DNA of 59,672 bases from a virus (IMGVR_UViG_3300024999_000014:1-59672); one strand, 5' to 3'; positions 4,271 to 59,672 are shown, counted from the stretch's first letter. Notes: a model not told the origin generated them from the letters alone. Numbers and translations: made by a program.

Positions 4271-5257
4271 ATGACGAGTGTACGTACCGTAAGAATGATA
4301 GAAAGTTCCCCGGACTACTACGAGGAAAGCGCCGTATTTGAGGGGATACAGGACGCCGTAGCCCAGGATTACGACCTACAGGAAGTAAGCGACGCCGACC
4401 TGCAGAACCAGCTGTACGCTACGACTGCTACCTGGGGACTTAGGTACTGGGAAGGTGGTCTAGGCATACCCGTAAAGGAAAGCGATAGCTACGAAGAACG
4501 CCGGGGCCGCGTTATCGCTAAGCTTATCGGAGAAGGAAACTTTAGCGCTAAGCTGCTGCACTCCCTGGCACAGGGTTACGGACAGACCATACGGGTAGCT
4601 ATTAACCCAGCGGCGTTCCTGGTTACCGTAACTTTTATGCAGGGCATACCGCCATTTCTGGAAGCCTACCAGGACGCCGTAGAAAACTTAGTCCATGCCC
4701 ATTTAGGCGTAGAATACAAGTTTGAATACTACGTAAACTTCGGGGCTTCTATAACCTCAGACTACGCCAGGTATGTGTACGACATACCTTTTACGGCGGC
4801 TTTTTTAACAGGTACCTATCCAAGTATCGCCGTACTAGGCCAGCAGTACGCCAGCAGCTTACCTATTAGCAGCGAAGAGTTAACCGTATCCCAGGACTTA
4901 GACTACTGCGGTACCCAGCCCTTCGTAGCTGTAGACGGGTGGCAGTATACAAGTGCCTTAGAGATAAGCCCGGAAGTAATACCTGTAGTACAGGATATGC
5001 AGGTAGCTAGCGAATTATTCTACGGCGGTACGTATCCTTATGTAGTGACAGGGGGAATGCAGTATGTGAGCGCTAGTAATATGACTACCGAAGAATTAAC
5101 GGTAGCCCAGGACTTACCTTACAGCGGTACGCTGCCTTATGTAGCTGTAGACGGGCGGCAGGTGGATAGCGGTATAAGTGCAGGTACCGAAGAAACGGCG
5201 GTAGAACAAAGCCTAGTTTACTGCAACACGGTTTATAGTGGGGGTGTGACAATATGA
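4271..5257 (+). CDS. XkdU/DUF2313-like tail protein with C-terminal internal repeats
   Basis: N-terminal about 175 aa resembles YmfQ/XkdU. The C-terminus carries 4 repeats of about 33 aa, GT.P[YF]V[AV]V.G.QY.S (nt 4811-5245). Confidence 0.55.
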   Translation: MTSVRTVRMIESSPDYYEESAVFEGIQDAVAQDYDLQEVSDADLQNQLYATTATWGLRYWEGGLGIPVKESDSYEERRGRVIAKLIGEGNFSAKLLHSLAQGYGQTIRVAINPAAFLVTVTFMQGIPPFLEAYQDAVENLVHAHLGVEYKFEYYVNFGASITSDYARYVYDIPFTAAFLTGTYPSIAVLGQQYASSLPISSEELTVSQDLDYCGTQPFVAVDGWQYTSALEISPEVIPVVQDMQVASELFYGGTYPYVVTGGMQYVSASNMTTEELTVAQDLPYSGTLPYVAVDGRQVDSGISAGTEETAVEQSLVYCNTVYSGGVTI

Positions 5258-5547
5258 TAACCGCGAATGGCCTAACCAGTATGGCTACAGCTATTAAGAA
5301 TCTGATAGCCAAAGGTACCTACACGATAGGGGGCGTAACGAAAGACGTCGCCGTACTAAATACGGAAGTCGTCGGGAATAAGCTTACCGTAAGGCTTTAC
5401 CTGGACGACAGCGTAAACGGTACGATAACCAAATTCCAGCTGGTGGGATATGACGCTACGGTATTAGCCGATAGGCCGGATAACGTCATAAAGCCCGCGC
5501 TTAAAGGGCTTCTGGTGATATTCAATTTTACAATAAGTGAGGTGTAA
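5254..5547 (+). CDS. hypothetical tail-fibre module protein
   Basis: 97-aa ORF coupled by ATGA overlap. Confidence 0.5.
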   Translation: MITANGLTSMATAIKNLIAKGTYTIGGVTKDVAVLNTEVVGNKLTVRLYLDDSVNGTITKFQLVGYDATVLADRPDNVIKPALKGLLVIFNFTISEV

Positions 5548-5550
5548 ACT

Positions 5551-6039
5551 ATGGCAGACTACACGCCGTTATTATGGCAAGATCACATAGTAGATCAGTT
5601 CGATGTTATCGTACAACAAGGTACGCCCGTATCGGCGCTGAACCTTAACCGCATGGAAGACGGCATAGACTTTTCCCATGACTATATCGGCGGCATGCTG
5701 GTAGTAGCCCTACAAGCAATAGCGGCGCTGCAGAACGAAAACAAGGCCCTGTATAACCAGCGATTACTACAGGGGCAAGCGACTATTAGTAGCGCTGGCG
5801 GTACCTACTTCAATACGGCGTATCCTTACGTACTGGTAAGCTTACCAGCTACAGCCTACAGCCTACTTAATTCGCCGAACTACGAAGTAGTCCTGGAAGT
5901 ACTAAGCGCTGACGACTTAGGAAAAGTAGGGATGCTTACGGCGTTCGAAAAAGCCCAAAACGGGTTTAAAGTACAGTGTACGGGCAGCGCTACCAGCGTT
6001 ACTTTTATGTGGACTATCGTAAATCCGAACGTAAAATAA
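5551..6039 (+). CDS. short tail-fibre-like protein
   Basis: N-terminal W.D......GTPVSALNLNRMEDGI motif, common at fibre N-termini of Firmicute phages. SD gtgaggtg. Confidence 0.5.
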   Translation: MADYTPLLWQDHIVDQFDVIVQQGTPVSALNLNRMEDGIDFSHDYIGGMLVVALQAIAALQNENKALYNQRLLQGQATISSAGGTYFNTAYPYVLVSLPATAYSLLNSPNYEVVLEVLSADDLGKVGMLTAFEKAQNGFKVQCTGSATSVTFMWTIVNPNVK

Positions 6040-6054
6040 GGGGAGGGTAAAAGC

Positions 6055-6429
6055 ATGATTATTCAAAATGTAAACGGTGGGCCTAAAGCTGTGTGTAGCT
6101 TAAACGGGACTGTGCTTACCGTAGAAGTACCGGGCGTAGACAGCCTGACTATGGACTTACAGCCCAAACAGACCGACGTACTAACTAAGATTGACGTGTC
6201 ATTAGGCCGGGATTACACGAAGCTAGCCGAAGGCGTAGGAAGCTGGTACGTAGCCCATGTAACCCTACCGCCCGTAGAGCAGGAACTTCACGAAACCGAC
6301 CAGCTGGACGCTGATGGAACGCCCATCATGACGCTGGTAACTATGCCCCTAGACATGAACAACGTAGTAGTACACCTTTGGGGCCTACCAGAAACAGCCG
6401 CAGTAACTGACAACGGAGGTATCGAATAA
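6055..6429 (+). CDS. hypothetical protein (fibre module)
   Basis: 124-aa ORF with SD ggggaggg. Stop overlaps the start of the next gene. Confidence 0.5.
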   Translation: MIIQNVNGGPKAVCSLNGTVLTVEVPGVDSLTMDLQPKQTDVLTKIDVSLGRDYTKLAEGVGSWYVAHVTLPPVEQELHETDQLDADGTPIMTLVTMPLDMNNVVVHLWGLPETAAVTDNGGIE

Positions 6430-7487
6430 TGGCATTTGTATTTAGCATTAAAGACACTTACAGGCAGGCCGTAGAAGCTGCTACCGGAGGAAAGAACACG
6501 GTAATGTACGACGATAAGGGTAACCCTTCGATCATGGTAGCGATACCCAGGTTTAACATTTCAGACGTAATAACCGGGGGAGCGAACACGCCGCACCCTG
6601 CATTTATCGTAAACGGGGTAACGAAAGACGTTATCTACGTAAGTAAATATCAAAACATCGTAAGTGATAGCCGGGCGTACTCTATCCCTTCACAAAATCC
6701 CGCCGCGTCTTTGACCTTCGACAACGCCCTAACCTACAGCAAGAATAAGGGCGTCGGCTGGCACCTTATGACCAATGCGGAATGGGCAGCTATCGCCCTG
6801 TGGTGCAAGAAAAACGACTTCATGCCACGCGGTAACAATAACTACGGCGCCGACATCGGGGCAGCCTGGGAAAAAGGTAAGATGATGACCAATTCAGCGG
6901 GCCAGACCAACGCGGTAGCTACTGGAAGCGGTCCGAAGTCCTGGGCACACGACAATAGCAACGAAGGTATATTTGACCTTAATGGAAATGTGAACGAATG
7001 GGTAGGCGGCCTACGCTTACAAGCCGGGGAAATTCAAGTACTGCGCGACAATAACGCGGCTGACAACCTTAAGGACCAAAGCGCTATCTCTGCTGAGTGG
7101 AAAGCGCTGGCCGCGGCTGACGGGGCCTACGTTGAACCTGGAACTATTGATACCTTAAAATGGGACTTCGTAGCTGCTAAAATCCAGCTAGCCAAAGCGA
7201 TCACGGTACAGGCAGACGCTAGCCGTACTAACACGTTTGAAACTACTACGGCAGAAGCTACGGTAGTCGTACCTGAAATTATGAAGGCGCTTGCTTTGCA
7301 CCCTGTAGACAACGCGCACGGCGGCGACTCCCTCTATATGAACAACGGGGCAGGCTTAGAACGGCTGCCGTATCGTGGCGGCTACTGGAACTACACTACG
7401 AGCGCTGGCGTGTTCCACTTGAACTTGAACACCCCGCGCACGATTGTGAACACGATCCTTGGGTTCCGGTGCGCTTACGTTGGTTAA
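6429..7487 (+). CDS. DGR target protein: receptor-binding fibre protein with C-terminal FGE-sulfatase/C-type-lectin-fold variable domain
   Basis: GWHLMTNAEWAAIALW and C-terminal RGGYW....GFRCA signature. The last 37 codons before YVG-stop are the VR. Confidence 0.85.
   Translation: MAFVFSIKDTYRQAVEAATGGKNTVMYDDKGNPSIMVAIPRFNISDVITGGANTPHPAFIVNGVTKDVIYVSKYQNIVSDSRAYSIPSQNPAASLTFDNALTYSKNKGVGWHLMTNAEWAAIALWCKKNDFMPRGNNNYGADIGAAWEKGKMMTNSAGQTNAVATGSGPKSWAHDNSNEGIFDLNGNVNEWVGGLRLQAGEIQVLRDNNAADNLKDQSAISAEWKALAAADGAYVEPGTIDTLKWDFVAAKIQLAKAITVQADASRTNTFETTTAEATVVVPEIMKALALHPVDNAHGGDSLYMNNGAGLERLPYRGGYWNYTTSAGVFHLNLNTPRTIVNTILGFRCAYVG
7365..7475 (+). repeat. DGR variable repeat (VR)
   Basis: 111 nt collinear with TR 7940-8050. 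9 mismatches, all at TR adenines. In frame, begins on a codon boundary. Confidence 0.95.
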
Positions 7488-7571
7488 CTGTTATCTGATA
7501 AACTGAATATCTGCGGGGGTGAGCGATAGCGAACCCCTCCCCAAAAATTGCGGTAACGAAAGGCTACGGTA

Positions 7572-7913
7572 ATGGAAGAATTTAAGATACTACAGAAGAC
7601 CTACGACATGATAATCTACGGTAGCCTTTGCTTGAAACAATTTCCTAAGTCTGAAAAGTACGCGCTTGCTTCGGATATTAAGCGTTCTATGTATAGCTTG
7701 CTTCGACTTATCATATCGGCGAACAAGCACTACTACAAAAAGACTACAATACAGGAAATTGACGTAGAACTAGACACATTACGTACGTTTATCCGTTTAG
7801 CAGCCGACCAAAACACGCGTTATTTAGCTATGAACAAGTACGAGAACTGGGCCAAACTATTGAACGAGTTAGGCCGTATGGTGGGCGGCTGGATAAAAAG
7901 TATTAAGCAGTAA
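7572..7913 (+). CDS. avd: DGR accessory variability determinant (four-helix-bundle, 23S rRNA-IVS protein family)
   Basis: 113 aa with FPKSEKYALASDIKRS motif. Positioned between target gene and TR. Confidence 0.85.
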   Translation: MEEFKILQKTYDMIIYGSLCLKQFPKSEKYALASDIKRSMYSLLRLIISANKHYYKKTTIQEIDVELDTLRTFIRLAADQNTRYLAMNKYENWAKLLNELGRMVGGWIKSIKQ

Positions 7914-7939
7914 TCCATATGGGGTACAGTCCTTATTAA

Positions 7940-8050
7940 CTGCCGAATCGTGGCGGCAACTGGAACAACACTACGAACGCTGGCGTGTTCAACTTGAACT
8001 TGAACAACCCGCGCACGAATGTGAACACGAACATTGGGTTCCGGTGCGCT
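7940..8050 (+). repeat. DGR template repeat (TR)
   Basis: Non-coding copy of the VR with 29 adenines. Read in the VR frame it holds 12 AAC/AAT codons. Confidence 0.95.
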
Positions 8051-8207
8051 CTACCTCAAAATACCCGCCAGTAGTGGCTTCCTTACGGGGCAGCTTCCAG
8101 GCAACCGAGGTAAAGGGGAATGTATCCCTACCGAAAGGTAAAAAATAAAACTTACGGCGTATACAGTCTAGTAGGGAATTACCGAACGCTGTAAAGCGCC
8201 TATTTTA

Positions 8208-9302
8208 ATGACTGGAGAAATGATGAAACGTGTAACTGACTTATTCGCGCAAATCTACAGCTTTGACAACCTGTACGCAGCATACATAGCAGCTAGGAAG
8301 GGTAAGCGGTACCGTGGAGAAGTACTAAGGTTTACGGCGAACCTAGAAGAGAACCTTATACAGCTGCAGAACGAGCTTATTTACGAAACCTACCAGGTGG
8401 GGCGCTATCGGGAATTCTATGTTACGGAACCAAAACGGCGGCTAGTTATGGCCCTACCATTCCGGGACAGAGTTGTACAATGGGCGATCTACCGAGTACT
8501 AAATCCTATATTTGAAAAGACGTTTATCCATCACAGCTATGCCTGCCGGGTAGGGAAAGGTACCCATGCAGCGGCGGCCAAACTTTACAGCTGGCTCAGG
8601 ACAATAACGCGAAAGCCTGAGAAGTGGTACTACCTTAAGCTGGACGTAGCGAAGTACTTTTACCGAGTAGATCACGCCGTAATAATGCGGATTATCTCCC
8701 GGAAGATTAAAGACAAAGACCTGCTACGGCTGCTTAAAAAGATCATAAACAGTGAAAATACGAAGTTCGGACTACCTACCGGAGGTACCCTGGATACAGA
8801 TAAGCGAATATCTGATAAGGGCATGCCGATAGGTAACCTAACTTCGCAAATGTTCGCGAACATATACCTAAATGAGCTAGACCAGTACGTTAAGCACGTC
8901 TTACGGATAAAGCATTACATTAGGTACATGGACGACATCATTATTCTACACCCGTCTAAGCAGCATTTACATCAAGTAAAATTTGACATATCCCGGTACC
9001 TAAATGAACAACTACGCCTGGAGCTTAACAATAAGACTACGATTAGGCCCGTAAGCCTGGGTGTACACTTCGTAGGCCAACAGATATGGGGTACCCACAG
9101 AAAGATACGTAAGCCCGCGTCTTTAAAGATAAAACGACGACTGGCCCTTTTAGCCCGGCAGTACAACAGGGGAGAATTACCGCTGGCGAAGTTCAAAGCG
9201 TCCTTAGCGTCTTACCTGGGGATTATGAAACACGTAGACTGTTATCGTTTTAAGGCTAAGCTACTAAGTACCATAAAGCTTTGCCGAAACCATGAGGAAT
9301 AA
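8208..9302 (+). CDS. DGR reverse transcriptase
   Basis: IGNLTSQ (DGR-type motif 4) and IRYMDDIIIL (YxDD). 364 aa, directly downstream of TR. Confidence 0.9.
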   Translation: MTGEMMKRVTDLFAQIYSFDNLYAAYIAARKGKRYRGEVLRFTANLEENLIQLQNELIYETYQVGRYREFYVTEPKRRLVMALPFRDRVVQWAIYRVLNPIFEKTFIHHSYACRVGKGTHAAAAKLYSWLRTITRKPEKWYYLKLDVAKYFYRVDHAVIMRIISRKIKDKDLLRLLKKIINSENTKFGLPTGGTLDTDKRISDKGMPIGNLTSQMFANIYLNELDQYVKHVLRIKHYIRYMDDIIILHPSKQHLHQVKFDISRYLNEQLRLELNNKTTIRPVSLGVHFVGQQIWGTHRKIRKPASLKIKRRLALLARQYNRGELPLAKFKASLASYLGIMKHVDCYRFKAKLLSTIKLCRNHEE

Positions 9303-9336
9303 AGCCGCTAGCCTACCCCCGTAGCTAGCGGCTTTT
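9302..9336 (+). terminator. intrinsic terminator after RT
   Basis: aagccgctagc / gctagcggctt 11-bp stem followed by TTTT. Confidence 0.7.
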
Positions 9337-9390
9337 ACTATGAGCAACCCCGCGCCTAACGGGTAAGAAGTTACGAAAGGGGGCCGCGTA

Positions 9391-9795
9391 ATGGCAGACG
9401 CCGTAGAACCTAAGCTATGCGAGGAAAAGCACAAGAACATAGACAAGCAATTATCTGTAGGCGAAAAACGCATGAACAGCCATTCCGAAAGCGTACACGA
9501 CGTTAAGGAAGCTATAGTACGGCTTACGATTATCCAGGAAATGCAGACCAATACCCAGGCAGCACAGACTAGAACGCTGGAGGGTATCGACAAACGGGTA
9601 AGCGACCTGGAAGACGCCCGTGTAGCCCATTTAAGGGAGCAAGAACAGCTTAGGCAATCAGAAAAATTTTGGCAGACAGCCGTAGGGCAGAGAGCTATAA
9701 CCGTGGGCGTGGTTATTACAGCTATTGTAATCCTGACGGCCATAGGCCAGGACGTAGGCCCGGATATTAAAGCTTGGCTAACAGGTAGTAAGTAG
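9391..9795 (+). CDS. XhlA-like lysis-associated membrane protein
   Basis: N-terminal CEEKHKNIDKQL...coiled coil plus a C-terminal TM (ITVGVVITAIVILTAI). Precedes the holin as in PBSX xhlA-xhlB. Confidence 0.55.
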   Translation: MADAVEPKLCEEKHKNIDKQLSVGEKRMNSHSESVHDVKEAIVRLTIIQEMQTNTQAAQTRTLEGIDKRVSDLEDARVAHLREQEQLRQSEKFWQTAVGQRAITVGVVITAIVILTAIGQDVGPDIKAWLTGSK

Positions 9796-11968: not shown

Positions 11969-12000
11969 CCCTGGCAGAAATGCCGGGGCCTTTTTCTTTT
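11969..12000 (+). terminator. intrinsic terminator
   Basis: ccctggca-gaaa-tgccgggg hairpin followed by cctttttctttt. Confidence 0.7.
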
Positions 12001-12071
12001 TGTCGCTAGGAATAGGACGGGCAGGCAAGGGAATACAATGTAACACCAAGAGAAAAAAGGAGGGCGCAACC

Positions 12072-13094
12072 ATGAAAAACGCAGCCGCCGACATAGGCTA
12101 CGGATGGACGAAGGCCATAGTAGAAGGCCAGGAAGAAGCCTTTAAACAGCCCAGCGTATTAGGAGAACCTAAGCAGCTATTCGAAGAATCCAGACGGGCT
12201 ACTGACATTATCTATAACGGTAAATACTTCGTAGGCGACCTAGCCCTACGCCATAGCGACGTACGGTACGCCGGGACGAAGGAAAGTAAGCCCGAAACCT
12301 GGACTACCAAAGTACTGCTTAAGGTAGCGCTGGGAATGACAGCCCCGGAAGAATCCGTAAACCTGGTAACCGGGCTACCTATCGACTTCTACCACAGCCA
12401 GCGCGGGGACTTCCGGGACATGATCGGTAAACTAGACCGGGTGCCTTACCAGCTGGAGGTAGGCCGCCGCGTGGTAGACTGTAGCCCGCAAATAGAGAAC
12501 GTAAAAATAGTACCCCAGCATTTAGGGGCCGCTATGGATTACCTGCTAGACAGCCGGGGCCAGGTAGTCGATAAAGGAGAAGCCCGGAAAAGTATCTTAG
12601 TCGTAGACCCTGGTTACTTTACCTTGGGTCTGCTGCCTATCGAAGGTATGGAAATCGGCAAGGAGCGCTGTAGCCCGCCGGGGCTAGGAGCAGACGCCGC
12701 CTATAAACTTATCCAGGATTACCTACGGGAGAAGACCGGGAACGCCCCGGCTAGGTATGACATGGACGCCATTTACGAAAAGGGCGACTACCGGGGCTAC
12801 GACATTAAGCCGCTTTTCTCCAAAGCATTTAAAGCCCTGGCCGGACAAATAGAGCTGGAAGTAGAAAGCCTAAATAAGCGCTACGACATGTACCTGCTGG
12901 TAGGCGGTACAGGGCTGCGTATTCGGGAATACTTAACGCTGCCTAATCTATTGATGTTACCAGACCCCCAGGCGGCGAATGTACGGGGCTACCTAAAGAT
13001 AGCGGCCCGGTTATGGGGTACCCACGACGACGGAATAGTACGGCTACCACACAGAAAGGCAGGGGCTAAGCTATGGGGCAGCGTAAGCGGCTAA
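12072..13094 (+). CDS. parM: ParM/StbA-family actin-like segregation ATPase
   Basis: SD aaggaggg + ATG 12072. AADIGYGWTKA (phosphate 1) and VVDPGYFTLG motifs. About 340 aa. Confidence 0.7.
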   Translation: MKNAAADIGYGWTKAIVEGQEEAFKQPSVLGEPKQLFEESRRATDIIYNGKYFVGDLALRHSDVRYAGTKESKPETWTTKVLLKVALGMTAPEESVNLVTGLPIDFYHSQRGDFRDMIGKLDRVPYQLEVGRRVVDCSPQIENVKIVPQHLGAAMDYLLDSRGQVVDKGEARKSILVVDPGYFTLGLLPIEGMEIGKERCSPPGLGADAAYKLIQDYLREKTGNAPARYDMDAIYEKGDYRGYDIKPLFSKAFKALAGQIELEVESLNKRYDMYLLVGGTGLRIREYLTLPNLLMLPDPQAANVRGYLKIAARLWGTHDDGIVRLPHRKAGAKLWGSVSG

Positions 13095-29018: not shown

Positions 29019-32000
29019 TTGACTAAGGCCAAAGAAACGACGATAGCCGACTACAAGTACGTAGACGCGTATCATTGTGATGAGAATGGCAAGTCTAGCC
29101 CCTGGCAGCGTATCGAAGTCGAGGGAGTACAGAGATACCAGCAGCAGGAAGCCTACAATTTTAACTGCTTCGCTACCGTGCAACGTTACACGAATAAGGC
29201 CAGAGTAAAGGGGGAAGGCTACATTGCCCCCCTTTACTTCGACCTTGACAATGCGGAAAACCCAGGCATAAGCCAGACCGACGCCGTAAAGCTAGTGCAG
29301 TTTTTCACCGAAGAACTAGACGCCAAACAGTCGGACATATGGGTATACTTTAGCGGTAGTAAGGGCTTTCATGTACTGATAAATAGCCAGGCGTTGGGGA
29401 TACAGCCACAGAATGACCTGCATAAGATTTTTAAACACATTGCCGGGTACCTAGTCCACCGCCTAGAACTTACTTCTTTAGACCTGGTAGTATACACTTC
29501 TTCGCGCATGCTACGGCTACCGAACAGCGTACACCATAAGACCAGGCTATTTAAGATAGAGCTAAGCGTCGAAGAATTACAGACTTTAACCCTGGCTGAA
29601 ATCAAAGAACTAGCTAAAATGCCGCGCCGGGACTTACCATTTACCGGGGAGCAGCGGCGGGACGAATTGGAACCAAGGAAGCAGGCAGCCCACTTCTACG
29701 CAGACAAGGCCCTGGAGTACCAGCAGGCAGCCGCTACCACGAATACCCGGTACGATAAAGAATCTTACATTTTTAAGAAAGGACAGCCGCCCGCCTGCGT
29801 ATCAGACATACTTACCGGGGGCTGGAAAAAAGACGGCGACCGGAACCAGGCTACCGTACAGCTAGCCTGCTACTTCAAAGACGCGGGCCACACGAAGGAA
29901 GAAGCCCTTAAGACGTTGGAAGACTGGGTTATACGGCATACAAGCGCCGAAGGTACCTACCACAAAGACCAGCGTATAGCGAATACCAGGAGCGCTACGG
30001 ACGCCGTATACAGTAAGGAAAATACGTACCGCTTCGGCTGCGCGTTTATCCGTAGCCTGCATGGGGAAAAGAAGCCGGGAAGTAAAGACTACGAGCGGGT
30101 AGCCTGTACTGGCGACTTATGCCCGGCGATTAAGCGGTATCAGGATGAAGCGGAAGCCGTAACCCTTCACTTAGCCCAAACTGGCGACGCCGAACTAACC
30201 GGAAAGCTGGTATTGACACGGGTAATGGTAGCGGGTAAGAAGTCCACGCCCTACATTGTACCGAAGAAGATAGAATACCATTGCTGGGGCCGTAGTAACT
30301 GCAAAAAATACCATTGTCCACTATACTCTATTCCGAACGGTACGGCGTATAGAACCCTGGGTGTACAAGATCGGGAGCTTATTCAAATGGCGGGTAACGG
30401 TGACGACAACATAAAAGGCATACTAAGGGAACTAAGCGCCGTACCAGCCTGCCAGAAGTACGATACCGACGTAGTGGAAACGACCAACGTAGAAGAACTG
30501 TTAGTAATACCAATGGCCGACGAAGGCCTGCCTGGAGTAGAAGCGCCGACCGAAGGACATTACGTACTACGGCGAGTTTACACGGTAGGGAATACGTCGA
30601 TAGCTGAAAACAAGTACTACGAACTAACTGGGTACGTATTCCCGCACCCGAAGAACCAAGAAAGCACGATCATTATACGGGACGGTAAGCCGCTGCAGGA
30701 TGTCGTAGAAAGCTTCGTACTTACGGGAGAGATTAAAGACCAGCTGGGAGCCTTCCAGCCTGCCGACTACACGCCGCAGGCTATCGAAGAAAAGCTGGCG
30801 GCCATATGTGCAGACCTTACCTACAACGTAACCCGGATAGTCGAGCGCGACGAAATCCTTTTAGGCGTACTGCTGACTATGCACAGTATCTTAAGGTTTA
30901 AAGTACCCTGGGACAGTGACTATATACGGGGATGGCTGGAACTTAAGATACTGGGCGACACGGCGACCGGGAAAAGCGCCTTAGTAGAAAAGATACTACG
31001 CTTTTCTAGCCTGGGTACCAGGGTAAACGCCGAATCTACCAGCAGGACAGGCCTAACGTACAAGATGGAGCAAAGCGGAACCGGGGGCGCCTGGTATATC
31101 GTATGGGGCGCCTGGCCTAGAGCAGACCGGGAACTAATCTGGATTGACGAAGACACGGGCATAGTGAAGGACGAATACGGAGAAATGACGCTGGCCCGGA
31201 GCGACGGACGGCTGGAGGTTAAGCGGGCAGTAACCGCAGAAACCCCCTGCCGCGTTAGGGCGATTATGTCCGGGAACGTGCCGAAAGGTAAACAGCTGGG
31301 GGAGTACGGCCAGGGCGTAGAAGCGCTTAAGGACATTTTTAACAATGAGGATATACGGCGCTTCGACTTCGCGGCTTTCATGCGACTATCTGACGTAGAC
31401 GCAGCCCTTTATAACCAGCAGCTAGCGACGTACCCCAGCATGATAAGTAGCGAAATGCTTAAGAATAACGTCCTTTTCAGCTGGAGCAGAACGCCGGACG
31501 CCGTTATATTTTCAGACGGCACCTTGGAAAAGATACTGGCCGTAGCCATAGACCTAAGTAAGATTTACGGAAACGCTACGGACATACCCCTAGTATCATC
31601 TTCCGACCAGCGGAACAAGTTAGCCAGGCTATCGGTAGCCTTGGCAGCCCTAACCCATAGCGTGGACGAATCCGGGGAACGCGTCGTAGTATGGCCTGGG
31701 CATGTCGAATTTATAGGCGAATATCTTAAAAGCCTGTATAACGCCCCAGGCTGCGGGCTGAACTACTACGCTAAGCTAGCCATACGTGAAGAGGAAATGA
31801 ACCCGGAGCGCTACAAGAAGATCACGGACGACCTGCGAAAGCTGGATACCCTCAAAGGGGACATAAAATTCTATGAGTTTATCCGGCTATTCGCGACGCA
31901 GAAGTACCTACGCCTGGGCGACGTAGAAGCCATGCTAAGCATAGACAAAGAGGAAACGAAAGGTATCGTAAATACCCTGGTTAAAATGCGCATGCTGCAA

Positions 32001-32099
32001 ATGACCAGCGGCGGGTACCGAAAGACCGCTAGGTTTAACGCTTACGTAGCTAAATGCTTCGAACTGGGCCTATTCGATACACTCACAGACGATTATTAA
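29019..32099 (+). CDS. AEP primase-polymerase fused to MCM-like AAA+ helicase
   Basis: N-terminal YFDLDN, SGSKGFHVLI, RLPNSVHHKT (AEP motifs). C-terminal LGDTATGKS (MCM-type Walker A), LIWIDED (Walker B), IRRFDF (Arg finger region). Confidence 0.8.
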   Translation: MTKAKETTIADYKYVDAYHCDENGKSSPWQRIEVEGVQRYQQQEAYNFNCFATVQRYTNKARVKGEGYIAPLYFDLDNAENPGISQTDAVKLVQFFTEELDAKQSDIWVYFSGSKGFHVLINSQALGIQPQNDLHKIFKHIAGYLVHRLELTSLDLVVYTSSRMLRLPNSVHHKTRLFKIELSVEELQTLTLAEIKELAKMPRRDLPFTGEQRRDELEPRKQAAHFYADKALEYQQAAATTNTRYDKESYIFKKGQPPACVSDILTGGWKKDGDRNQATVQLACYFKDAGHTKEEALKTLEDWVIRHTSAEGTYHKDQRIANTRSATDAVYSKENTYRFGCAFIRSLHGEKKPGSKDYERVACTGDLCPAIKRYQDEAEAVTLHLAQTGDAELTGKLVLTRVMVAGKKSTPYIVPKKIEYHCWGRSNCKKYHCPLYSIPNGTAYRTLGVQDRELIQMAGNGDDNIKGILRELSAVPACQKYDTDVVETTNVEELLVIPMADEGLPGVEAPTEGHYVLRRVYTVGNTSIAENKYYELTGYVFPHPKNQESTIIIRDGKPLQDVVESFVLTGEIKDQLGAFQPADYTPQAIEEKLAAICADLTYNVTRIVERDEILLGVLLTMHSILRFKVPWDSDYIRGWLELKILGDTATGKSALVEKILRFSSLGTRVNAESTSRTGLTYKMEQSGTGGAWYIVWGAWPRADRELIWIDEDTGIVKDEYGEMTLARSDGRLEVKRAVTAETPCRVRAIMSGNVPKGKQLGEYGQGVEALKDIFNNEDIRRFDFAAFMRLSDVDAALYNQQLATYPSMISSEMLKNNVLFSWSRTPDAVIFSDGTLEKILAVAIDLSKIYGNATDIPLVSSSDQRNKLARLSVALAALTHSVDESGERVVVWPGHVEFIGEYLKSLYNAPGCGLNYYAKLAIREEEMNPERYKKITDDLRKLDTLKGDIKFYEFIRLFATQKYLRLGDVEAMLSIDKEETKGIVNTLVKMRMLQMTSGGYRKTARFNAYVAKCFELGLFDTLTDDY

Positions 32100-33290: not shown

Positions 33291-35744
33291 ATGAAACTAG
33301 GTAGTTTATTCGGAGCAACTAAGACGCTGGCTAAGGCCCCTAAACCAGCGCCCGCTTCCGAACCTACAAACGTAGTATCTTCACAAATCAAACAGCTTAT
33401 ACACAAGCCAGGGGAATTTAATATTAAATGGCCGAAGGTAGCGCCCCAGCAGGTAAAGGACTACCAGGCCATAACAACCCTAAACGAGCTGGAAGCCTAC
33501 TGTAAACGCTGCCAGGAAACAGGCCTAGCGGGGTACGACATTGAAACCGCGGCCAGCGAAAATACCAGGACAGAGTACGCCGCATTAAGCCCGGAAGAAC
33601 AGGAAGCTAAGCGGGAAGCGTACCTTAAGACGCCGCTAGACCCGTGGAAAGGCGAAGTATGTACGTTTAGCTTGGCAGCAGCCCCACACGAAGCGCGGGC
33701 CGTCTTCCTAAGCCACAAGAAGGGCGCCCGCTTATTCGAACCCCAGCGCAGCCGTAGCGAAGCCCGTAGGTTAGCCCTGGACATTGTAGACCGCCTAATA
33801 TTCCGTAACCGCATGGTAATTAAGATAGCCTGGAATCTAAGCTTTGAAACAAAGTACGCGGCTAAGTATGCTAAGTACATTCTAACCCCAGTATCAGACC
33901 CCCAGGTAAGCAGCGTACGCTGTATGCAGATAGTTCTACCGCAAAAGATAGCCGACCCTAAACGCCCGGTAAGCGGTAAAGGTTTAAAGCCCCAAACTAT
34001 GGCGATATTCGGTGTACAAATGGGAAGCTTTAAGGGCCTACTGGCTAAGTACGGCGTAGAATTCTTTGACGAAATTAGCTGCGACGAACAGGAAGCCCTG
34101 GTATATAGCTGCGAAGACAGCGACTACGCCCTGCAGCAGCACCTGTACTGGATAGAGGTAGCCAAACAGATACCGAAGTACGAAGAGTGGCTTACTGTGT
34201 ACGAAATGCCCTTTGCCCGTGTTATCGGCCTTATGGAGTACTGGGGCATGGGCTGGGACGAAAACCTAGCCCGCGTAAAAGGCGAAGAAGCCGTAACCAT
34301 GCAGGAGCAGGCCGCCGAACGTATTAGGAAAATAGCTATGGATACGTTCGGTATCGAAGTCAATACGGGGAAATCCGGGAAGACGAACGAAATAAAAAGT
34401 CTGGTATTCGACTACTTTAAGCTGGTACCCGCGAAGTGGAGCAAGAAGGTAAAAGGCGCTGTATCAATGGACGAAGAAGCCATTATAGATATGCGCTTTA
34501 TGCTAGAAAACAAGCTGGAAGACCTTAAGGAAGAAAAGTACCTAGCTGTAGAATTGCCGGAAGATTGGGAAAGCCGCGACCCGGATACCGACCCACGATT
34601 AAGCAAAGACGAGCGCCAGGCGATACGTATACGGCGTAGGGAACCGCACCCGCATAAGGACGCGGCCTTACAGCTGCTGGACGAATTACAGAATATCCAG
34701 CGCTACAGTACACTGCTATCAAGCCACATTAGGGGCCGGGAAAAGTACCTTAATTCGGAAAGCGGAAGAATACACGCGAACTATACGCCCTGGACGGAAA
34801 CCGCCCGGCTGAATTCGAACAGTCCTAACGGTCAGAACGTACCCCGTATGGATAACGACGACTTTGGTATACGTAATTTCTATGTACCTGGTGTAGGTAA
34901 AATCCTGTACTTTATCGACTTTAGTGGCTTCGAGCTTCGCCTAATGGCGTGGCGTAGCGGCGACGAAGTTATGATAGAGATATTCAAAACAGGGGGCGAC
35001 ATACACCGCCGTACTGCTTCCGTCGGAACGGGTAAGCCGGAAGCCGAAATAACGAAGAAGGAGCGCCAGGACGCTAAGCCAGCTAACTTCGGCATAGCCT
35101 ACGGCGGTACAGAACATGCGCTGCAGAAGACCTTTAAAACGGAATACCTAATCCGTAAGACCTTAGACGAATGTTTAAAGCTGGTAAACGCCGTTAAGGG
35201 CGCCTATAAACGTATCCCTGAATTCCAGCGCGGTATAGCATTAGACGCCAGGGAAAAGGGCTGGGTACAGACTATTTACGGGTATATCCGGCTGCTGCCT
35301 AACATTAACAGCCCGAACAGCTTCGAACGCGGGAAGGATGAACGACGGGCCGCTAATACGCCTATTCAGGGTGGGGCTGCCGACGTTATGAAAAAATGCC
35401 AGAACCAAGTTTACGAGGAAATAGGGCGCGGTACGGCCCTTAACTACGACGCGGAAGCCTTGGGCCTTACAGCTGGGGAACTGGCCGCCCACCGTGGCGA
35501 AGACGTGCCGATACTATCCCATGGACACACGGACATGATAGCCCAAATTCACGACGAAATTATTTTCGAAATGGACGACGACACGGACGTAGTAGCATTA
35601 GCTGGCGCCTGGGTTAAAGCTATGATGGAGCAGCCGCCTTTGCCGAACTTTCCGTTACCGATTGAAGCGGAAGACAGTGTAGGGTACAAGTGGGGAGCGA
35701 AGCAAAGCGTAAAATCCTGGCTAGCCGAAAAGCTTACGGCGTAA
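33291..35744 (+). CDS. family A DNA polymerase with 3'-5' exonuclease domain
   Basis: YDIETA (ExoI), DFSGFELRLMA (motif A), RQDAKPANFGIAYG (motif B), QIHDEIIFE (motif C). Confidence 0.9.
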   Translation: MKLGSLFGATKTLAKAPKPAPASEPTNVVSSQIKQLIHKPGEFNIKWPKVAPQQVKDYQAITTLNELEAYCKRCQETGLAGYDIETAASENTRTEYAALSPEEQEAKREAYLKTPLDPWKGEVCTFSLAAAPHEARAVFLSHKKGARLFEPQRSRSEARRLALDIVDRLIFRNRMVIKIAWNLSFETKYAAKYAKYILTPVSDPQVSSVRCMQIVLPQKIADPKRPVSGKGLKPQTMAIFGVQMGSFKGLLAKYGVEFFDEISCDEQEALVYSCEDSDYALQQHLYWIEVAKQIPKYEEWLTVYEMPFARVIGLMEYWGMGWDENLARVKGEEAVTMQEQAAERIRKIAMDTFGIEVNTGKSGKTNEIKSLVFDYFKLVPAKWSKKVKGAVSMDEEAIIDMRFMLENKLEDLKEEKYLAVELPEDWESRDPDTDPRLSKDERQAIRIRRREPHPHKDAALQLLDELQNIQRYSTLLSSHIRGREKYLNSESGRIHANYTPWTETARLNSNSPNGQNVPRMDNDDFGIRNFYVPGVGKILYFIDFSGFELRLMAWRSGDEVMIEIFKTGGDIHRRTASVGTGKPEAEITKKERQDAKPANFGIAYGGTEHALQKTFKTEYLIRKTLDECLKLVNAVKGAYKRIPEFQRGIALDAREKGWVQTIYGYIRLLPNINSPNSFERGKDERRAANTPIQGGAADVMKKCQNQVYEEIGRGTALNYDAEALGLTAGELAAHRGEDVPILSHGHTDMIAQIHDEIIFEMDDDTDVVALAGAWVKAMMEQPPLPNFPLPIEAEDSVGYKWGAKQSVKSWLAEKLTA

Positions 35745-39897: not shown

Positions 39898-41196
39898 TCA
39901 GTCAGCTTTGTGTAAACGAGAAACTCTTCCCTTGGATTGAACATAGAACTCAGGAATCATTCCAATGGGTAGTTCGATTAGACTCAAACTCTTATCAATT
40001 CCCTTTGGTGGCTTAACAGACTGAGTAATTTTCTTCTTCTTACCGAACAACATTTTAACTCTCAACACCTCGAAAGAATATCCTCTACCCATACGATTTG
40101 TAGTTCTGATTAGGTTATTAAATGACTCTGTATAAGCGTTCGTAAGGGGCATGTCAAAGTAGTTGGTTATCTCTTCTTGCCAGTTCTCAAAGGTCTTAGC
40201 TAATGGATTGAATGAGTGTGCAATATCCTCTGTGATTAACGATTTCCATTGCTGAAACTGTTCAATAGCAATCTTCTTATCACCTGACTCAAAGATAGTA
40301 TAGAACAGTTCTTTAAGGCAGTAAGCGTTGTACAGGGAAGGGTAGTGGTCAACCCAAGAGTCTAATATCTCATTCTCTCTTGCAGAAAGGGTGTGCTTAC
40401 GCCTTAGAAGGATAAAACGGTCATGTAGCAAGGTTGTCCTAGTCCTGCCTGTCAGATTGGCTCTTGTCTCCTTTCTGATGGTATCCAGAGCGTAATTAGC
40501 AAGCCTGACGATGTGGAACTTATCAACTATAACCTTGGCATGAGGTAACAGTTCGTTACAGACAATCTTATAGGGTCGCCACATATCCATTGTGACGTAC
40601 TCTACATGTCTTCTCTTAGGGAGTTTTAAGAACCAAGCGTAGACTTCTGCCTTAGTTCTTCCAGGTAACATGTCAATCAAAGAATTGTTCACGATGTTCG
40701 TAATAACGCATCTAGGGGCTTTGATTATATGGATTTCATCAATACCTATCCAGTTAGGGATAACTGGCTTATAAGCCTTATTTAGCCCTCCTGCGTAGGC
40801 GTGGAAGATGTTACGGATAGTCTTCTCATGAAGTCCAATATCCTCTGCAAGACTAGTGAAAGTTTTAAGCAATGACTGTTGCTGAATGTACGTTACAAGG
40901 CGTTTGGTTGCCATATGACTATCATCCATATCAGGAAGTTCTTCACGAAAGGTAGAACCGCAATCACGACAGATATACCTTTGACGGTCAACAAAGACAC
41001 AGACACGCTTACCCCTTATAGGGATGTCCATATAGGATTGAGTCTTTTTACCGTACTTAGAGAGGTTGTGTTGCCTTACGCTACCGCATTTCTGGCAACA
41101 GATAGGTGCATCCTTCATTTCAGCCTGAATACGAAAGACGGTATCAAGTTCATTAGATTCGGTAGTGTTTAAACTCTTTAATCCTAGAATGTCCAT
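39898..41196 (-). CDS. ISL3-family DDE transposase
   Basis: N-terminal zinc finger CQKCGS...CRDCGS, GIDEIHI, VTMDMWRPY, VDKFHIVR, TNAYTESFNNLIR...GRGY. Confidence 0.9.
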   Translation of the reverse strand: MDILGLKSLNTTESNELDTVFRIQAEMKDAPICCQKCGSVRQHNLSKYGKKTQSYMDIPIRGKRVCVFVDRQRYICRDCGSTFREELPDMDDSHMATKRLVTYIQQQSLLKTFTSLAEDIGLHEKTIRNIFHAYAGGLNKAYKPVIPNWIGIDEIHIIKAPRCVITNIVNNSLIDMLPGRTKAEVYAWFLKLPKRRHVEYVTMDMWRPYKIVCNELLPHAKVIVDKFHIVRLANYALDTIRKETRANLTGRTRTTLLHDRFILLRRKHTLSARENEILDSWVDHYPSLYNAYCLKELFYTIFESGDKKIAIEQFQQWKSLITEDIAHSFNPLAKTFENWQEEITNYFDMPLTNAYTESFNNLIRTTNRMGRGYSFEVLRVKMLFGKKKKITQSVKPPKGIDKSLSLIELPIGMIPEFYVQSKGRVSRLHKAD

Positions 41197-41339
41197 AAAT
41201 CAAATCCTTTCTGGGAGGTGTTGCATGACCTATTCTGAGTAATCGTGACTATCTGAATGAGAATCGAAGAATATGAACAATAATTGAAGATTTTGAATAC
41301 GAATGTGTTTATTTGGTTGAAAACGGAGAGAGGTGTTAA

Positions 41340-41543
41340 ATGAATGGATATTTATTACCCATGTGTTTACCAATATGTCCAACTAGTGCTTCACATGGGG
41401 AGATGATTCTAAGACAACAACTAGGTCAGACTTACGAACAAAAATTCTGTGGTACATGGTATGACTGTCCAAAATGTAGTTCATCCGTCCTGTTTCAATC
41501 TAAAGAACTTCAGGAGTTCTTAAAATCTCAAAAAGGAGGATAA
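41340..41543 (+). CDS. IS passenger ORF 1, Cys-rich (zinc-ribbon-like)
   Basis: 67 aa, C..C...C..C spacing, SD ggagagagg. Confidence 0.45.
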   Translation: MNGYLLPMCLPICPTSASHGEMILRQQLGQTYEQKFCGTWYDCPKCSSSVLFQSKELQEFLKSQKGG

Positions 41544-41549
41544 GCAAAA

Positions 41550-41912
41550 GTGTATAGTCATCCAAGTTTAACCTGTCTATATGGCACTAAAATCGGTTCT
41601 AAAGCCGTTTATGAGGATGCTCAGATAGTTGCTAGGGCATTGAGAGACTGTATACCTCAAAACATACCCTTACCGTTCTCTAGTATCCTAAAAACCACTT
41701 CTTCAAAGGGTAAAAAGAAATCGATAAAAGCTGTCTTGGAAATGTTTGATGGTAAGCATGACACTATCAAAGTCTCAACATGGGGGTATTTAAATTCGTG
41801 GTCGCTTCAATGGATTCTCACAAAGGATAGTGGCAGTAGCTTTAATTGGGACGGAAACAAGTGGATAAGGATAGACGAATCGTTTTGGAGGGATGAAGAT
41901 ATTGACTTATAA
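41550..41912 (+). CDS. IS passenger ORF 2
   Basis: 120 aa, GTG start after SD aaaggagg. Confidence 0.45.
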   Translation: MYSHPSLTCLYGTKIGSKAVYEDAQIVARALRDCIPQNIPLPFSSILKTTSSKGKKKSIKAVLEMFDGKHDTIKVSTWGYLNSWSLQWILTKDSGSSFNWDGNKWIRIDESFWRDEDIDL

Positions 41913-42141
41913 ACCAACTCCAGGTTTCTTCGACCTAACCGAAAAACCTAAAGACATGACCACTAAGACACATAAAAAAATACAACAACACCAAATGATG
42001 TTGATTGCGGAATCAGAGAAATATAAAGACCCAGAAGTAAGAAAAAACAATTGGACAACCTTTGAAAAACTAAGGGAATACATGGCTCAGCTTCAATCAA
42101 TCATACTTACTCATTATCCTCATGAAATGCTCTTCAAGTAA
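41893..42141 (+). CDS. IS passenger ORF 3
   Basis: 82 aa, overlaps ORF 2. Confidence 0.4.
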   Translation: MKILTYKPTPGFFDLTEKPKDMTTKTHKKIQQHQMMLIAESEKYKDPEVRKNNWTTFEKLREYMAQLQSIILTHYPHEMLFK

Positions 42142-57872: not shown

Positions 57873-59672
57873 ATGTCTAACCTTTTCACTATGGGCGCTC
57901 AAATAATTCTAAATGACGCATTTACGCCGCGTATTAATACTGCGGAAAGGGCTTCCCGTAGTTTTCGGGAAAGTTTGTTTAGTCTTAAAGGCGCCCTAAC
58001 CGCAGTAGCTGGTAGTATGGCAATAAAGGCAAGCTTCGACTGGCTGGTAAAGGGTAACGCTGATATGGAAACGTACCAGAATACCCTAGCTATAGTCATG
58101 GGCAGCCAGGAAAAGGCGGTAGAAACGCTGGCCTGGGCTAATAAGTTCGCCGCGTCAACGCCATTTGAAATACCGCAAATTGTTGAAGCCACTACACGTA
58201 TGAGCGCTTACGGACTTAATGCACAAAAGACATTAGGCATTGTAGGCGACATGGCTAGCGTAATGGGTAAAGACCTTATGCAGGCTGTAGAAGCCGTAGC
58301 CGACGCGCAGACCGGAGAAGTAGAACGGCTTAAAGAATTCGGTATCACGAAAGGCATGATACAGCAACAAGCTAAAATGCTGGGTTCTAACCCCATAAAT
58401 AACCAGGGACAAATAACCGACCAGAAAGCATTTAACGCAGCCCTGTTTAGCTTAATGGAAAAGCGGTATAAGGGCGGTATGGACTTACAAAGTAAAACGT
58501 TTAAAGGCATGATGTCGAACGTACAGGACTTCGTAAGTAGCGCCGGAAGGACTTTAGGAAAGCCAATATTCGACGCGCTAAAGTCTGGCTTAAGCAGCAG
58601 CCTGGACTGGATGAATAAGCTGCAGGGAAGCGGGGCTATTGACGCAGCCGCTAACGAAGTGGCGTACTTCGGTAAGCTTGTAGGCGGGGTATTTTCTTCA
58701 TCGTTTCAAGTAGCTAAGGATAATGTAGATATGATAAGCGGTAAGCTTATAGTATTTTACAATACCCATAAGCCGCAGATAGATGCCGTAGGACAACTAA
58801 TTCAAAAGGTATTTACGGATTTATGGACTACTTCCTCAGAAGTACTGGATTGGCTACGAACTAATGCACTACCAGGTGTAATAGATTCCCTTACCACTGT
58901 AGGTGGCTGGGTGCTAAATATCGCTAGTTTCTTTAACGATAACTGGAGTACCATCAAGCCACTAATCGAAGGTATAGCTATTGCCTGGGGAATTTTCATA
59001 GGGTACCAGAAAGCCGTAGCATTAGCTACCCGTATATCTACAGCAGCACAATGGGCATGGAACGCGGCTATGAGTGCAAATCCAGCGGGCCTAATCGTTA
59101 CAGCCATCGGGCTACTAATCGGTGCGGGTATCTTGCTATACCAAAATTGGGATACGGTAAAACAAGGTGCCGCTGACTTGTGGGTATCAATTAAAAATTA
59201 TTTTGCTTCTGGTGTAAATTTCGCTATAGACAAATTAAATTGGCTTATCAGTAAAATACAGTTAGTACCAGGCTTCGGGGATACCCCGCTAATAGCCAGA
59301 ATGGAACTAGACACGTCAAGCAATACCAGCGCCGACGGTATGAAAGCGGCCCGAAGTATGGACTTAGGTATTGATGGTAGCAATAAAAACGGCCTAAGCT
59401 ACGTACCATACGACGGGTATATATCCGAACTCCATAAAGGCGAAATGGTGCTAACAGCCAAAGAAGCTGACCGTATGCGGCAAGGCATTACAGCTGGTAC
59501 CGGGGCGCTTGCTGCTGGTGTACCCGGCTTGCCTGGAATGTCCGGTGCTGCTGGTGTACCCGGCTTGCCTGGAATGTCCGGTGCTGCTGGTGTACCCGGC
59601 TTGCCTGGAATGTCCGGTGCTGCTGGTGTACCCGGCTTGCCTGGAATGTCCGGTGCTGCTGGTGTACCCGGC
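57873..59672 (+). CDS. tail tape measure protein, N-terminal 600 aa (runs off window end, continues at 1..367)
   Basis: SD aagggggt + ATG. No stop to the window end. The TP901-type TMP core (...TLAWANKFAASTPFE...GDMASVMG...) ends in the (GAAGVPGLPGMS)n repeat. Confidence 0.85.
   Translation, partial: MSNLFTMGAQIILNDAFTPRINTAERASRSFRESLFSLKGALTAVAGSMAIKASFDWLVKGNADMETYQNTLAIVMGSQEKAVETLAWANKFAASTPFEIPQIVEATTRMSAYGLNAQKTLGIVGDMASVMGKDLMQAVEAVADAQTGEVERLKEFGITKGMIQQQAKMLGSNPINNQGQITDQKAFNAALFSLMEKRYKGGMDLQSKTFKGMMSNVQDFVSSAGRTLGKPIFDALKSGLSSSLDWMNKLQGSGAIDAAANEVAYFGKLVGGVFSSSFQVAKDNVDMISGKLIVFYNTHKPQIDAVGQLIQKVFTDLWTTSSEVLDWLRTNALPGVIDSLTTVGGWVLNIASFFNDNWSTIKPLIEGIAIAWGIFIGYQKAVALATRISTAAQWAWNAAMSANPAGLIVTAIGLLIGAGILLYQNWDTVKQGAADLWVSIKNYFASGVNFAIDKLNWLISKIQLVPGFGDTPLIARMELDTSSNTSADGMKAARSMDLGIDGSNKNGLSYVPYDGYISELHKGEMVLTAKEADRMRQGITAGTGALAAGVPGLPGMSGAAGVPGLPGMSGAAGVPGLPGMSGAAGVPGLPGMSGAAGVPG
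59510..59672. repeat. 36-bp in-frame tandem repeat (4.5 copies) at window end
   Basis: Units at 59510, 59546, 59582, 59618 and 59654 (19 nt), identical to the unit at 1-105. Confidence 0.95.

Follow-up and report, generated by a model that had tools for sequence, protein, structure and literature searches.

A probably functional BPP-1-type diversity-generating retroelement at the end of the tail module of a contractile-tailed phage

Tens of thousands of diversity-generating retroelements (DGRs) have been catalogued. The one described here lies in IMGVR_UViG_3300024999_000014:1-59672, a viral stretch of 59,672 nucleotides (the window). Three genes follow one another on its plus strand, encoding a target protein, an accessory variability determinant (Avd) and a reverse transcriptase (RT). 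A variable region (VR) occupies the 3′ end of the target open reading frame (ORF), and a template repeat (TR) and a structured RNA spacer separate avd from the RT gene (Table 1). We consider it very probable that these parts form a complete, functional DGR of the BPP-1 type, in the order target-avd-TR-spacer-RT, and that this element closes the baseplate/tail module of a contractile-tailed phage of ~59.6 kb.

Table 1. Features of the cassette and its immediate surroundings, in window coordinates
Feature	Position	Strand	Description
Small ORF	5254-5547		97 aa; PHROG 7177
Small ORF	5551-6039		162 aa; PHROG 9010
Small ORF	6055-6429		124 aa; PHROG 8734
Target gene	6429..7487	+	352-aa DGR variable protein, C-type-lectin fold of FGE subtype, single-domain
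VR	7365..7475	+	111 nt, codons 313-349 of target; 9 mismatches to TR
GC-rich 3′ block GGGTTCCGGTGCGCT	7461..7475	+	adenine-free 15-mer, identical in VR and TR
Four tandem 7-8-nt units TTAACTG, TTATCTG, ATAAACTG, AATATCTG	7484..7513	+	VR side only
GC-rich hairpin/cruciform	7516..7537	+	arms 7516-7524 and 7529-7537; loop GATA 7525-7528 (fits GRNA)
avd	7572..7913	+	113 aa; Pfam bAvd 1.3e-34
Putative stop duplex, 5′ strand GGGGUACAGUCCUU	7921..7934	+	predicted to pair with spacer 8115-8128; ends 6 nt before TR
TR	7940..8050	+	111 nt, non-coding; 29 A, 12 AAY codons (AAC/AAT) in VR frame
Structured TR-RT spacer RNA (Sp)	8049..8201	+	Rfam RT-14 (RF02921)-like
Sp putative template strand UACCUC	8052-8057		predicted to pair with primer strand GAGGUA 8107-8112
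Sp covarying stem-loop	~8074-8097		UACG loop
Sp tetraloop stem-loop ACC-GAAA-GGU	8130-8139		followed by A-run 8140-8150
Sp 3′ hairpin	8156-8200		z = -2.4
DGR RT	8220..9302	+	360 aa from ATG 8220, 359 aa from 8223; longest ORF from 8208
Terminator-like hairpin AAAGCCGCUAGC...GCUAGCGGCUUU + U-run	9301..9335	+	directly after RT stop codon

The relationship between the two repeats is that expected of a DGR. Re-aligned by script, VR and TR are collinear over 111 nt with a constant offset of 575 and zero gaps, and the edges of the homology are sharp (7364/7365 and 7475/7476). All nine mismatches (VR positions 7371, 7383, 7392, 7402, 7416, 7432, 7444, 7456 and 7458) fall on TR adenines, as A>T five times, A>C three times and A>G once, and none of the 82 non-A positions of the TR differs; the hypergeometric probability of placing nine of nine mismatches on 29 A positions in 111 nt is 2.0e-6. 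The differences are thus confined to the adenines of a non-coding template that carries AAY codons, and the ORF whose 3′ end the VR occupies encodes a lectin/FGE fold. The VR-encoded residues 313-349, LPYRGGYWNYTTSAGVFHLNLNTPRTIVNTILGFRCA, are followed by YVG and the stop codon. The original prediction, made from the window alone, had given the same repeat coordinates, nine mismatches, 29 adenines and 12 AAC/AAT codons, and had described the VR as encoding the last 37 residues before YVG-stop of a 352-aa protein; the re-alignment reproduced all of this and found no mismatch at a non-A position. A search tolerant of A changes on both strands of the 59.7-kb window revealed no second VR for this TR. 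We do not regard a 75-aa ORF called across the TR in two relatives (L003 and L004) as a gene, since the template that it overlaps is non-coding.

Comparison of contigs extends the pattern to natural populations. Among the contigs of public assemblies, 19-23 encode exactly this Avd and 18 exactly this target protein. The 90% cluster of the target has one further member, P0002, which matches it at every residue from 1 to 314 and departs from it solely in the VR-encoded segment. The contig of P0002 (L012) is 3,655 bp long and comes from a sediment metagenome in a separate sequencing run; it matches window positions 5276-8930 at 100% identity bar 16 positions, all of them in the VR; 15 of these are at TR-A sites, and the TR is identical. 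Since this 16-position allele comes with zero other differences in 3.6 kb, the change in the VR is very recent. Sister lineages, found via Avd variants, have VRs that differ from their TRs at 15 A sites (L003), 13 (L006), 11 (L007), 15 (L179) and 12 (L182), with a single non-A difference, in L182. A separate tally of five VR/TR pairs from this phage group gives 58 A-substitutions and 1 non-A. L179 and L182, which come from two assemblies and overlap by 998 nt, differ at 14 positions, of which one is TR position 1 and 13 are in the VR, the latter at TR-A sites in 13 of 13 cases. Moreover, the TRs of four lineages differ from one another at nine sites, and at each of these the matching VR has the base of its own TR, which implies repeated TR-to-VR transfer. 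The VR therefore varies at A-templated sites, on a clonal background and with a constant TR, and DGR activity in nature is demonstrated by isogenic genomes that differ in their VR. Concerted TR-to-VR evolution and isogenic alleles are direct observations, as are the parts of the cassette and its A-specific pattern. The VR is not invariant in population data, and the signature of adenine-specific mutagenic retrohoming claimed for the window is borne out both by the P value and by VR-only differences between isogenic contigs at TR-A sites.

The short contigs of this phage group also commonly break near the VR, hairpin and TR, k=141 assemblies included; with k-mers of that length, the assembly graph ought not to be disturbed by an imperfect repeat of 111 nt. 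One contig ends inside the TR (L002), two start in the 3′ end of the VR (L180/L181), two in the hairpin loop (L183/L184) and two just after the hairpin (L177/L178). These breaks are consistent with VR microdiversity in the samples or with breakage at the hairpin.

Both trans-acting proteins can be assigned to DGR families. Avd scores 125.7 bits (8e-37) against the NCBIfam equivalog DivGenRetAVD, well over its cutoff of 80. A phmmer search of the PDB gave no chain at E <= 0.01, though BPP-1 Avd structures are deposited, so that the identification needed profile libraries; Avd sequences are far more divergent than those of the RT (bAvd profile 1e-34, no phmmer PDB match). The RT carries the motifs PIGNLTSQ and YMDD, matches Pfam RVT_1 (1.7e-23) and has no maturase or endonuclease domain. 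Its best PDB match is the BPP-1 RT, bRT (8ub7; 4.4e-54, 187 bits, residues 6-332), with bRT residues linked to catalysis and fidelity (R74, I181-Q187 and YMDD) conserved in the alignment, whereas group II intron and retron-type RTs reach at most 94 bits, ~100 bits under bRT. None of the NCBIfam models for group II, retron or DRT proteins comes near its cutoff. We also scanned 160 loci encoding RT relatives, drawn from genomes and IMG/VR, and found a TR/VR pair with an A bias at 115 of them; those without one are mostly short contigs. The RT thus falls in the DGR clade, defined by [LIV]GxxxSQ, YxDD and the absence of maturase and endonuclease domains. Its start is most likely ATG 8220 or 8223, the position 8208 being less likely, because GGAG stands at 8213-8216; gene callers in other assemblies chose 8223 (359 aa). 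Each component of the complete target-avd-TR-RT element named in the original prediction, including the Avd-type gene between target and TR and an RT with IGNLTSQ and YMDD, thus passes a profile or homology test.

The spacer appears to hold the RNA elements needed for cis-primed reverse transcription, as judged by homology and covariation. Positions 8049-8201 align to the full 144-position Rfam model RF02921 with the same helices (43.2 bits, E 9e-5), and are best described as a divergent RT-14 homologue, not a formally scored member. At gathering thresholds, an Rfam search of the whole window returned nothing, RT-14 emerging solely with an E-value threshold. The spacers of relatives both near and distant (L003, L093, L029, L099 and L095) score 53-79 bits, over the gathering score, with 54.2 for the sister lineage L003, and RNAalifold on 17 spacers yields a 9-bp stem-loop with compensatory changes in 7 of the 9 pairs. 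A second, long-range element has no counterpart in the Rfam model, which lacks pairing to the segment upstream of the TR. The 7921-7934:8115-8128 duplex has a predicted energy of -23.2 kcal/mol (RNAduplex), matched by 2 of 200 shuffles. About 20 divergent relatives have a duplex in the same register, with helix sequences that are unrelated yet complementary and an energy that few shuffles attain. We infer that it is the analogue of the avd:Sp duplex of BPP-1 termed 'cPRT Stop', which, together with a template:primer duplex, is seen in the cryo-EM structure of the BPP-1 RT-Avd-RNA complex (bioRxiv 10.1101/2023.10.23.563531). Both in BPP-1 and in the window spacer, a short stem-loop with a tetraloop comes after the stop duplex, and then an A-run. 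Priming and stop sites in the window are accordingly putative assignments by homology with BPP-1. At the other end of the cassette, the 9301-9335 hairpin (-22.6 kcal/mol, z = -5.6) is likely the 3′ end of the DGR transcript; it was found by folding, and an intrinsic-terminator scan of 6000-9500 called neither it nor any other terminator by its criteria.

On the VR side, the elements expected of a DGR target site can be recognized. All lineages retain the GC block, and where position 105 has undergone a G/C change, both repeats show it. Past the block, the VR and TR flanks diverge completely (7475/8050). By analogy with BPP-1 (PMC3240598, PMC5758913), we presume that it represents the GC-rich first part of the initiation of mutagenic homing (IMH) site and supplies the 3′ homology for cDNA integration. 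Downstream, the hairpin at 7516-7537 has 7 of 9 Watson-Crick pairs plus a tandem A.G/G.A mismatch (fold z = -2.3), and matches the GRNA hairpin/cruciform, a target-recognition element required for BPP-1 homing (PMC3240598). Distant relatives have homologous hairpins in the same place, with covarying GC stems and GATA, GGTA or GACA loops. Folding of the whole VR-avd spacer was no better than shuffles; it is the comparison with relatives that makes the hairpin convincing. By sequence comparison, the region thus carries a putative GC-rich IMH that differs from the TR side, followed by a GRNA-loop inverted repeat.

The short tandem units lie between the end of the VR/TR homology and the GRNA hairpin. 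Among 80 non-redundant loci, all relatives of one RT, such periodic units occur downstream of the VR in 40% and downstream of the TR in 3%, with controls at 4% (upstream of the VR) and 1% (shuffles). CTG-type arrays are seen in L014-L017, L029, L093-L122 and L143, and AATC-type arrays in L054-L089 and L147-L170. In DGRs with two VRs, the entire downstream block is duplicated together with the VR. The BPP-1 IMH (L175 3436-3460, minus strand) contains three TGA spaced 8 and 7 nt, and the differences between IMH and IMH* alter all three. We found no description of a VR-side periodic array in the DGR literature searched. The IMH marks the VR as recipient and the TR as donor, and the array may be the specific part of that mark. 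Our tentative proposal, which we hold to be possible but somewhat doubtful, is that the sequence-specific IMH determinant is a tandem array of 3-4 units, each of 7-8 nt, which keeps a fixed register with the GRNA hairpin immediately 3′ of it. Periodicity of this kind suggests recognition by an oligomeric factor, for example pentameric Avd in an RT-Avd-cDNA complex, or a host protein.

Taken together with the BPP-1 work, these elements outline a putative route from TR to VR. An RT-Avd complex would bind RNA spanning the avd 3′ flank, the TR and the spacer. Folding back of the spacer would bring GAGGUA (8107-8112) onto UACCUC (8052-8057), immediately 3′ of the TR, and the adenosine at ~8112 would prime cDNA synthesis, with C8051, one nucleotide past the end of the TR/VR homology, as the first templated base. 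The RT would then copy the TR faithfully except at its 29 adenines, where any nucleotide could be inserted, until synthesis halts at the 7921-7934:8115-8128 duplex a few nucleotides 5′ of the TR. Finally, the adenine-mutagenized cDNA would replace VR 7365-7475, at a target site set by the GC block (7461-7475), the VR-only sequence 7476-7513 and the GRNA hairpin; this integration route is proposed by homology with BPP-1. Recoding could reach as many as 12 Asn (AAY) codons and 5 others that contain A, in the ligand-binding face of the lectin fold, giving roughly 1e14 or more possible proteins, among which stop codons cannot arise.

The cassette follows a recognizable set of virion genes. Structural genes encode an SPP1-type portal, a Mu F-like protein and capsid E, and the tail genes a sheath, a DUF2001 tube, an XkdN-like chaperone, LysM, YqbQ, a sheath initiator, baseplate J and a Mu gp48-like protein (Pfam Phage_sheath_1C, DUF2001, Phage_TAC_5, LysM, YQBQ, Sheath_initiator, Baseplate_J and Phage_Mu_Gp48), the Phage_sheath_1C match being just under its cutoff (23.9 versus 26.9 bits). 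These are the components and the order of a PBSX/Mu-like contractile-tail module, a similarity that concerns the module only. The name 'PBSX-like myovirus' that had been given to the phage fits the XkdN-like chaperone, DUF2001, YqbQ, sheath, Baseplate_J and Mu Gp48 matches. Three small ORFs always stand between the gp48-like gene and the variable protein, also in Faecalibacterium phage FP_Lagaffe (L173 4548-5677). They had no significant PDB match and matched only 'unknown function' families among the PHROGs, and are candidates for an adaptor or fibre that carries the lectin-fold protein.

The fold of the target is fixed by a match of 1.8e-70 to a solved structure, TaqVP (5VF4), a variable protein encoded by a prophage DGR of Thermus aquaticus (PMC6328139), and Pfam FGE-sulfatase is also matched (4e-8), which agrees with the FGE-sulfatase/C-type-lectin hallmarks originally reported. 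Target residues 3-251 align to TaqVP 5-265, and the VR segment aligns to the TaqVP C-terminus, albeit weakly (second stretch, E 0.32). Both proteins are single-domain FGE-type C-type-lectin (CLec) folds with a C-terminal VR (PMC6328139); they differ in length (385 aa for TaqVP, 352 aa here) and in that TaqVP comes from a thermophile prophage. The target belongs to PHROG 2889 (1e-131), a large phage family. Full-length homologues with 33-47% identity are found in cultured phages, including FP_Lagaffe, Bise (Pseudomonas), Saumur (Clostridium), BalMu-1 (Bacillus) and the Vibrio phage VHML, a classic DGR phage (PMC3240598, Fig. 5 legend). Several of these homologues lie within contractile-tailed, Mu-like or P2-like phages, although the hosts and genome backbones of VHML, Bise, Saumur and BalMu-1 differ from those of the window phage. 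Gene position and analogy suggest that the target sits at the tail-fibre tip, where its diversification would programme tropism, and homology with BPP-1 suggests that it is the phage's receptor-binding protein.

Several observations weigh against a functional DGR that reprogrammes tropism, and those that concern the target raise the most serious alternative. The target lacks any fibre or trimerization domain, and its closest solved homologue, TaqVP, is a monomeric single-domain protein (PMC6328139). A real, working DGR could thus have a target other than a receptor-binding fibre tip. The target would be soluble, or at any rate no part of a fibre, and might be an accessory adhesin or a decoration protein, or might act on the host surface or a host defence. 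Its diversification would then leave adsorption tropism unreprogrammed. Such a role would suit a lone CLec/FGE domain that aligns with TaqVP from residue 3 and has nothing like the beta-prism or trimerization domains of Mtd, the 'unknown function' label of PHROG 2889 and the three small upstream ORFs without recognizable fibre homology. Nevertheless, the gene directly follows the baseplate J/gp48-like genes, where contractile-tail phages encode fibres, and FP_Lagaffe has the same arrangement with a protein annotated as Mtd-like; the target also has a secondary match to a 'tail protein' PHROG family (2e-13), and its homologues are mainly found in phage genomes. We therefore regard a non-fibre target as unlikely.

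The other contrary observations concern the activity of the cassette. Within the spacer, the score of 43.2 bits falls short of the RT-14 gathering score of 48.1, as formal membership would require, and the first stem-loop is energetically weak. The target-site hairpin has two internal mismatches and starts 40 nt past the end of the homology, slightly outside the reported span of 4-34 bp in phage DGRs (PMC3240598). A sigma-70 promoter scan of 6000-9500 found sites at chance level and identified no promoter, and an RT scan of genome_contigs identified no host. The L012 allele includes one change at a TR-T site (contig position 2172, window 7447; T>C, Val>Ala), its sole non-A difference, which may come from occasional misincorporation by the RT at a non-A base, from ordinary mutation, or from an artefact of building a consensus over a mixed VR population. 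Finally, the target protein is identical on 18 of the 19 contigs of the lineage on which it was compared, which may mean that diversification is infrequent or that the samples are related.

If the cassette were a recently silenced relic, the VR/TR pattern and the alleles would record past retrohoming by an element that has ceased to diversify. The VR allele shared by 18 contigs, the hairpin mismatches and the sub-threshold spacer score could all be read in this way, as could the lack of further alleles: scans with a degenerate VR pattern gave one match in metagenome_contigs (the L007 allele) and none in viral_contigs, both of them large collections. However, the RT, Avd and target ORFs are intact with their catalytic motifs present, the TR retains its 12 AAY codons, and the 16-position allele on an otherwise identical 3.6-kb background marks a very recent event. 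The hairpin mismatches and the spacer sequence are, moreover, common to sister lineages that show isogenic VR variation. A relic is thus quite improbable, and we retain a functional element. Chance, or the ordinary divergence of a duplicated segment without any retroelement, is a bare possibility as the source of the adenine-restricted differences, given short repeats and nine differences in the window itself. Its probability is negligible, and the L012, L179/L182 and TR-mirroring comparisons effectively refute it. Against it stand the P = 2e-6 from the window alone, the 58 A versus 1 non-A changes over related pairs, the VRs that follow their own TR at non-A sites and the flanking Avd and DGR-clade RT.

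The remainder of the genome adds some context. A perfect 36-nt tandem repeat lies at both window ends (1-105 and 59510-59672), with a 91-nt exact terminal overlap, on which grounds the genome is complete and circularly assembled. The repeat encodes a collagen-like Gly-X-Y motif, AAGVPGLPGMSG, in a gene at the tape-measure position. Other assemblies of this phage are longer, at 59,744 and 59,780 bp, by two and three units of the repeat, whose copy number is thus either uncertain or variable. The best RT matches in genomes are from Caloranaerobacter (62%, on a 1.5-kb contig), Selenomonas ruminantium (53%) and Christensenellales (48%), which places the nearest RTs in Bacillota. A scan for tRNA and tmRNA genes found none. 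A replication/maintenance set within 12000-35744 comprises an actin-like ParM/ALP protein (12000-13094), an SbcC-like ATPase with a phosphoesterase, a DEAD/ResIII helicase, a C5 cytosine methyltransferase, a protein of 1026 aa that fuses primase and MCM (29019-32099) and a DNA polymerase of family A (33291-35744). The presence of a ParM-like gene may point to a prophage that persists like a plasmid. A complete ISL3-family transposase gene (DDE_Tnp_ISL3, 3e-66) on the opposite, minus strand (39898-41196) sits in a low-GC island (40001-42000, 39.6% GC in a ~50% GC genome) and looks like an insertion sequence within the phage; sister genomes are ~1.2-1.5 kb shorter than that of the window phage. 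Type II hammerhead ribozymes above the Rfam gathering score were found a few kilobases from the DGRs of two relatives, a Selenomonas ruminantium prophage region (L029 9437-9502, plus strand) and an IMG/VR contig (L143 10620-10683, minus strand), and the window holds no equivalent.

Compared with the prototype DGR of BPP-1 (mtd-avd-TR-brt), the element has the same order of target, avd, TR, spacer and RT, a VR at the 3′ end of a CLec/FGE-fold target, and bRT as the closest solved relative of its RT, with IGxLTSQ and YMDD conserved. In both, a GC-rich VR/TR end precedes a GC hairpin with a GRNA loop, and the predicted spacer duplexes, template:primer and upstream:spacer, parallel those of the BPP-1 structure (10.1101/2023.10.23.563531). 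There are also clear differences. The RT is clearly divergent and alignable over ~330 residues, Avd is too divergent for a phmmer match to the PDB, and the 352-aa single-domain target stands against a three-domain, trimeric Mtd. In BPP-1, avd itself contains the upstream strand of the stop duplex, whereas the putative strand here lies in the avd-TR intergenic spacer. Furthermore, the TR/VR homology of the window ends at the GC block, without recognizable IMH* similarity past it, and the hairpin is 40 nt away; BPP-1 is a short-tailed phage, whereas the window phage has a contractile tail. Among cultured phages, FP_Lagaffe (NC_047911, gp26-gp28; 72% identity over 16% of the cassette) comes closest in DNA sequence; it is an annotated DGR phage with the same order of LysM, baseplate J, I/gp48-like protein, three small ORFs, variable protein, Avd and RT. 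Its variable protein of ~360 aa is 47% identical to the target. FP_Lagaffe is nonetheless a different genus-level phage from the human gut with patchy nucleotide similarity, a longer RT ORF (437 aa as annotated) and a genome that is otherwise unrelated at the DNA level.

With the same cassette in the same place in FP_Lagaffe, the DGR described here is a further example of a well-known system and conceptually adds little. Its value is that of a clean natural example, in which the genome is complete, all known cis and trans elements can be placed to the nucleotide, and independent metagenome assemblies hold isogenic genomes that differ at A-templated VR positions. How the cDNA of a DGR finds and replaces the VR is a long-standing unsolved step, and the periodic array, if it is the true IMH determinant, would make target recognition and cDNA integration directly testable. 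The phage group is also useful for testing the generality of the BPP-1 RNA mechanism, with its template:primer duplex and cPRT Stop, and is suited to the study of tropism switching in environmental contractile-tailed phages of the sediment/groundwater type.

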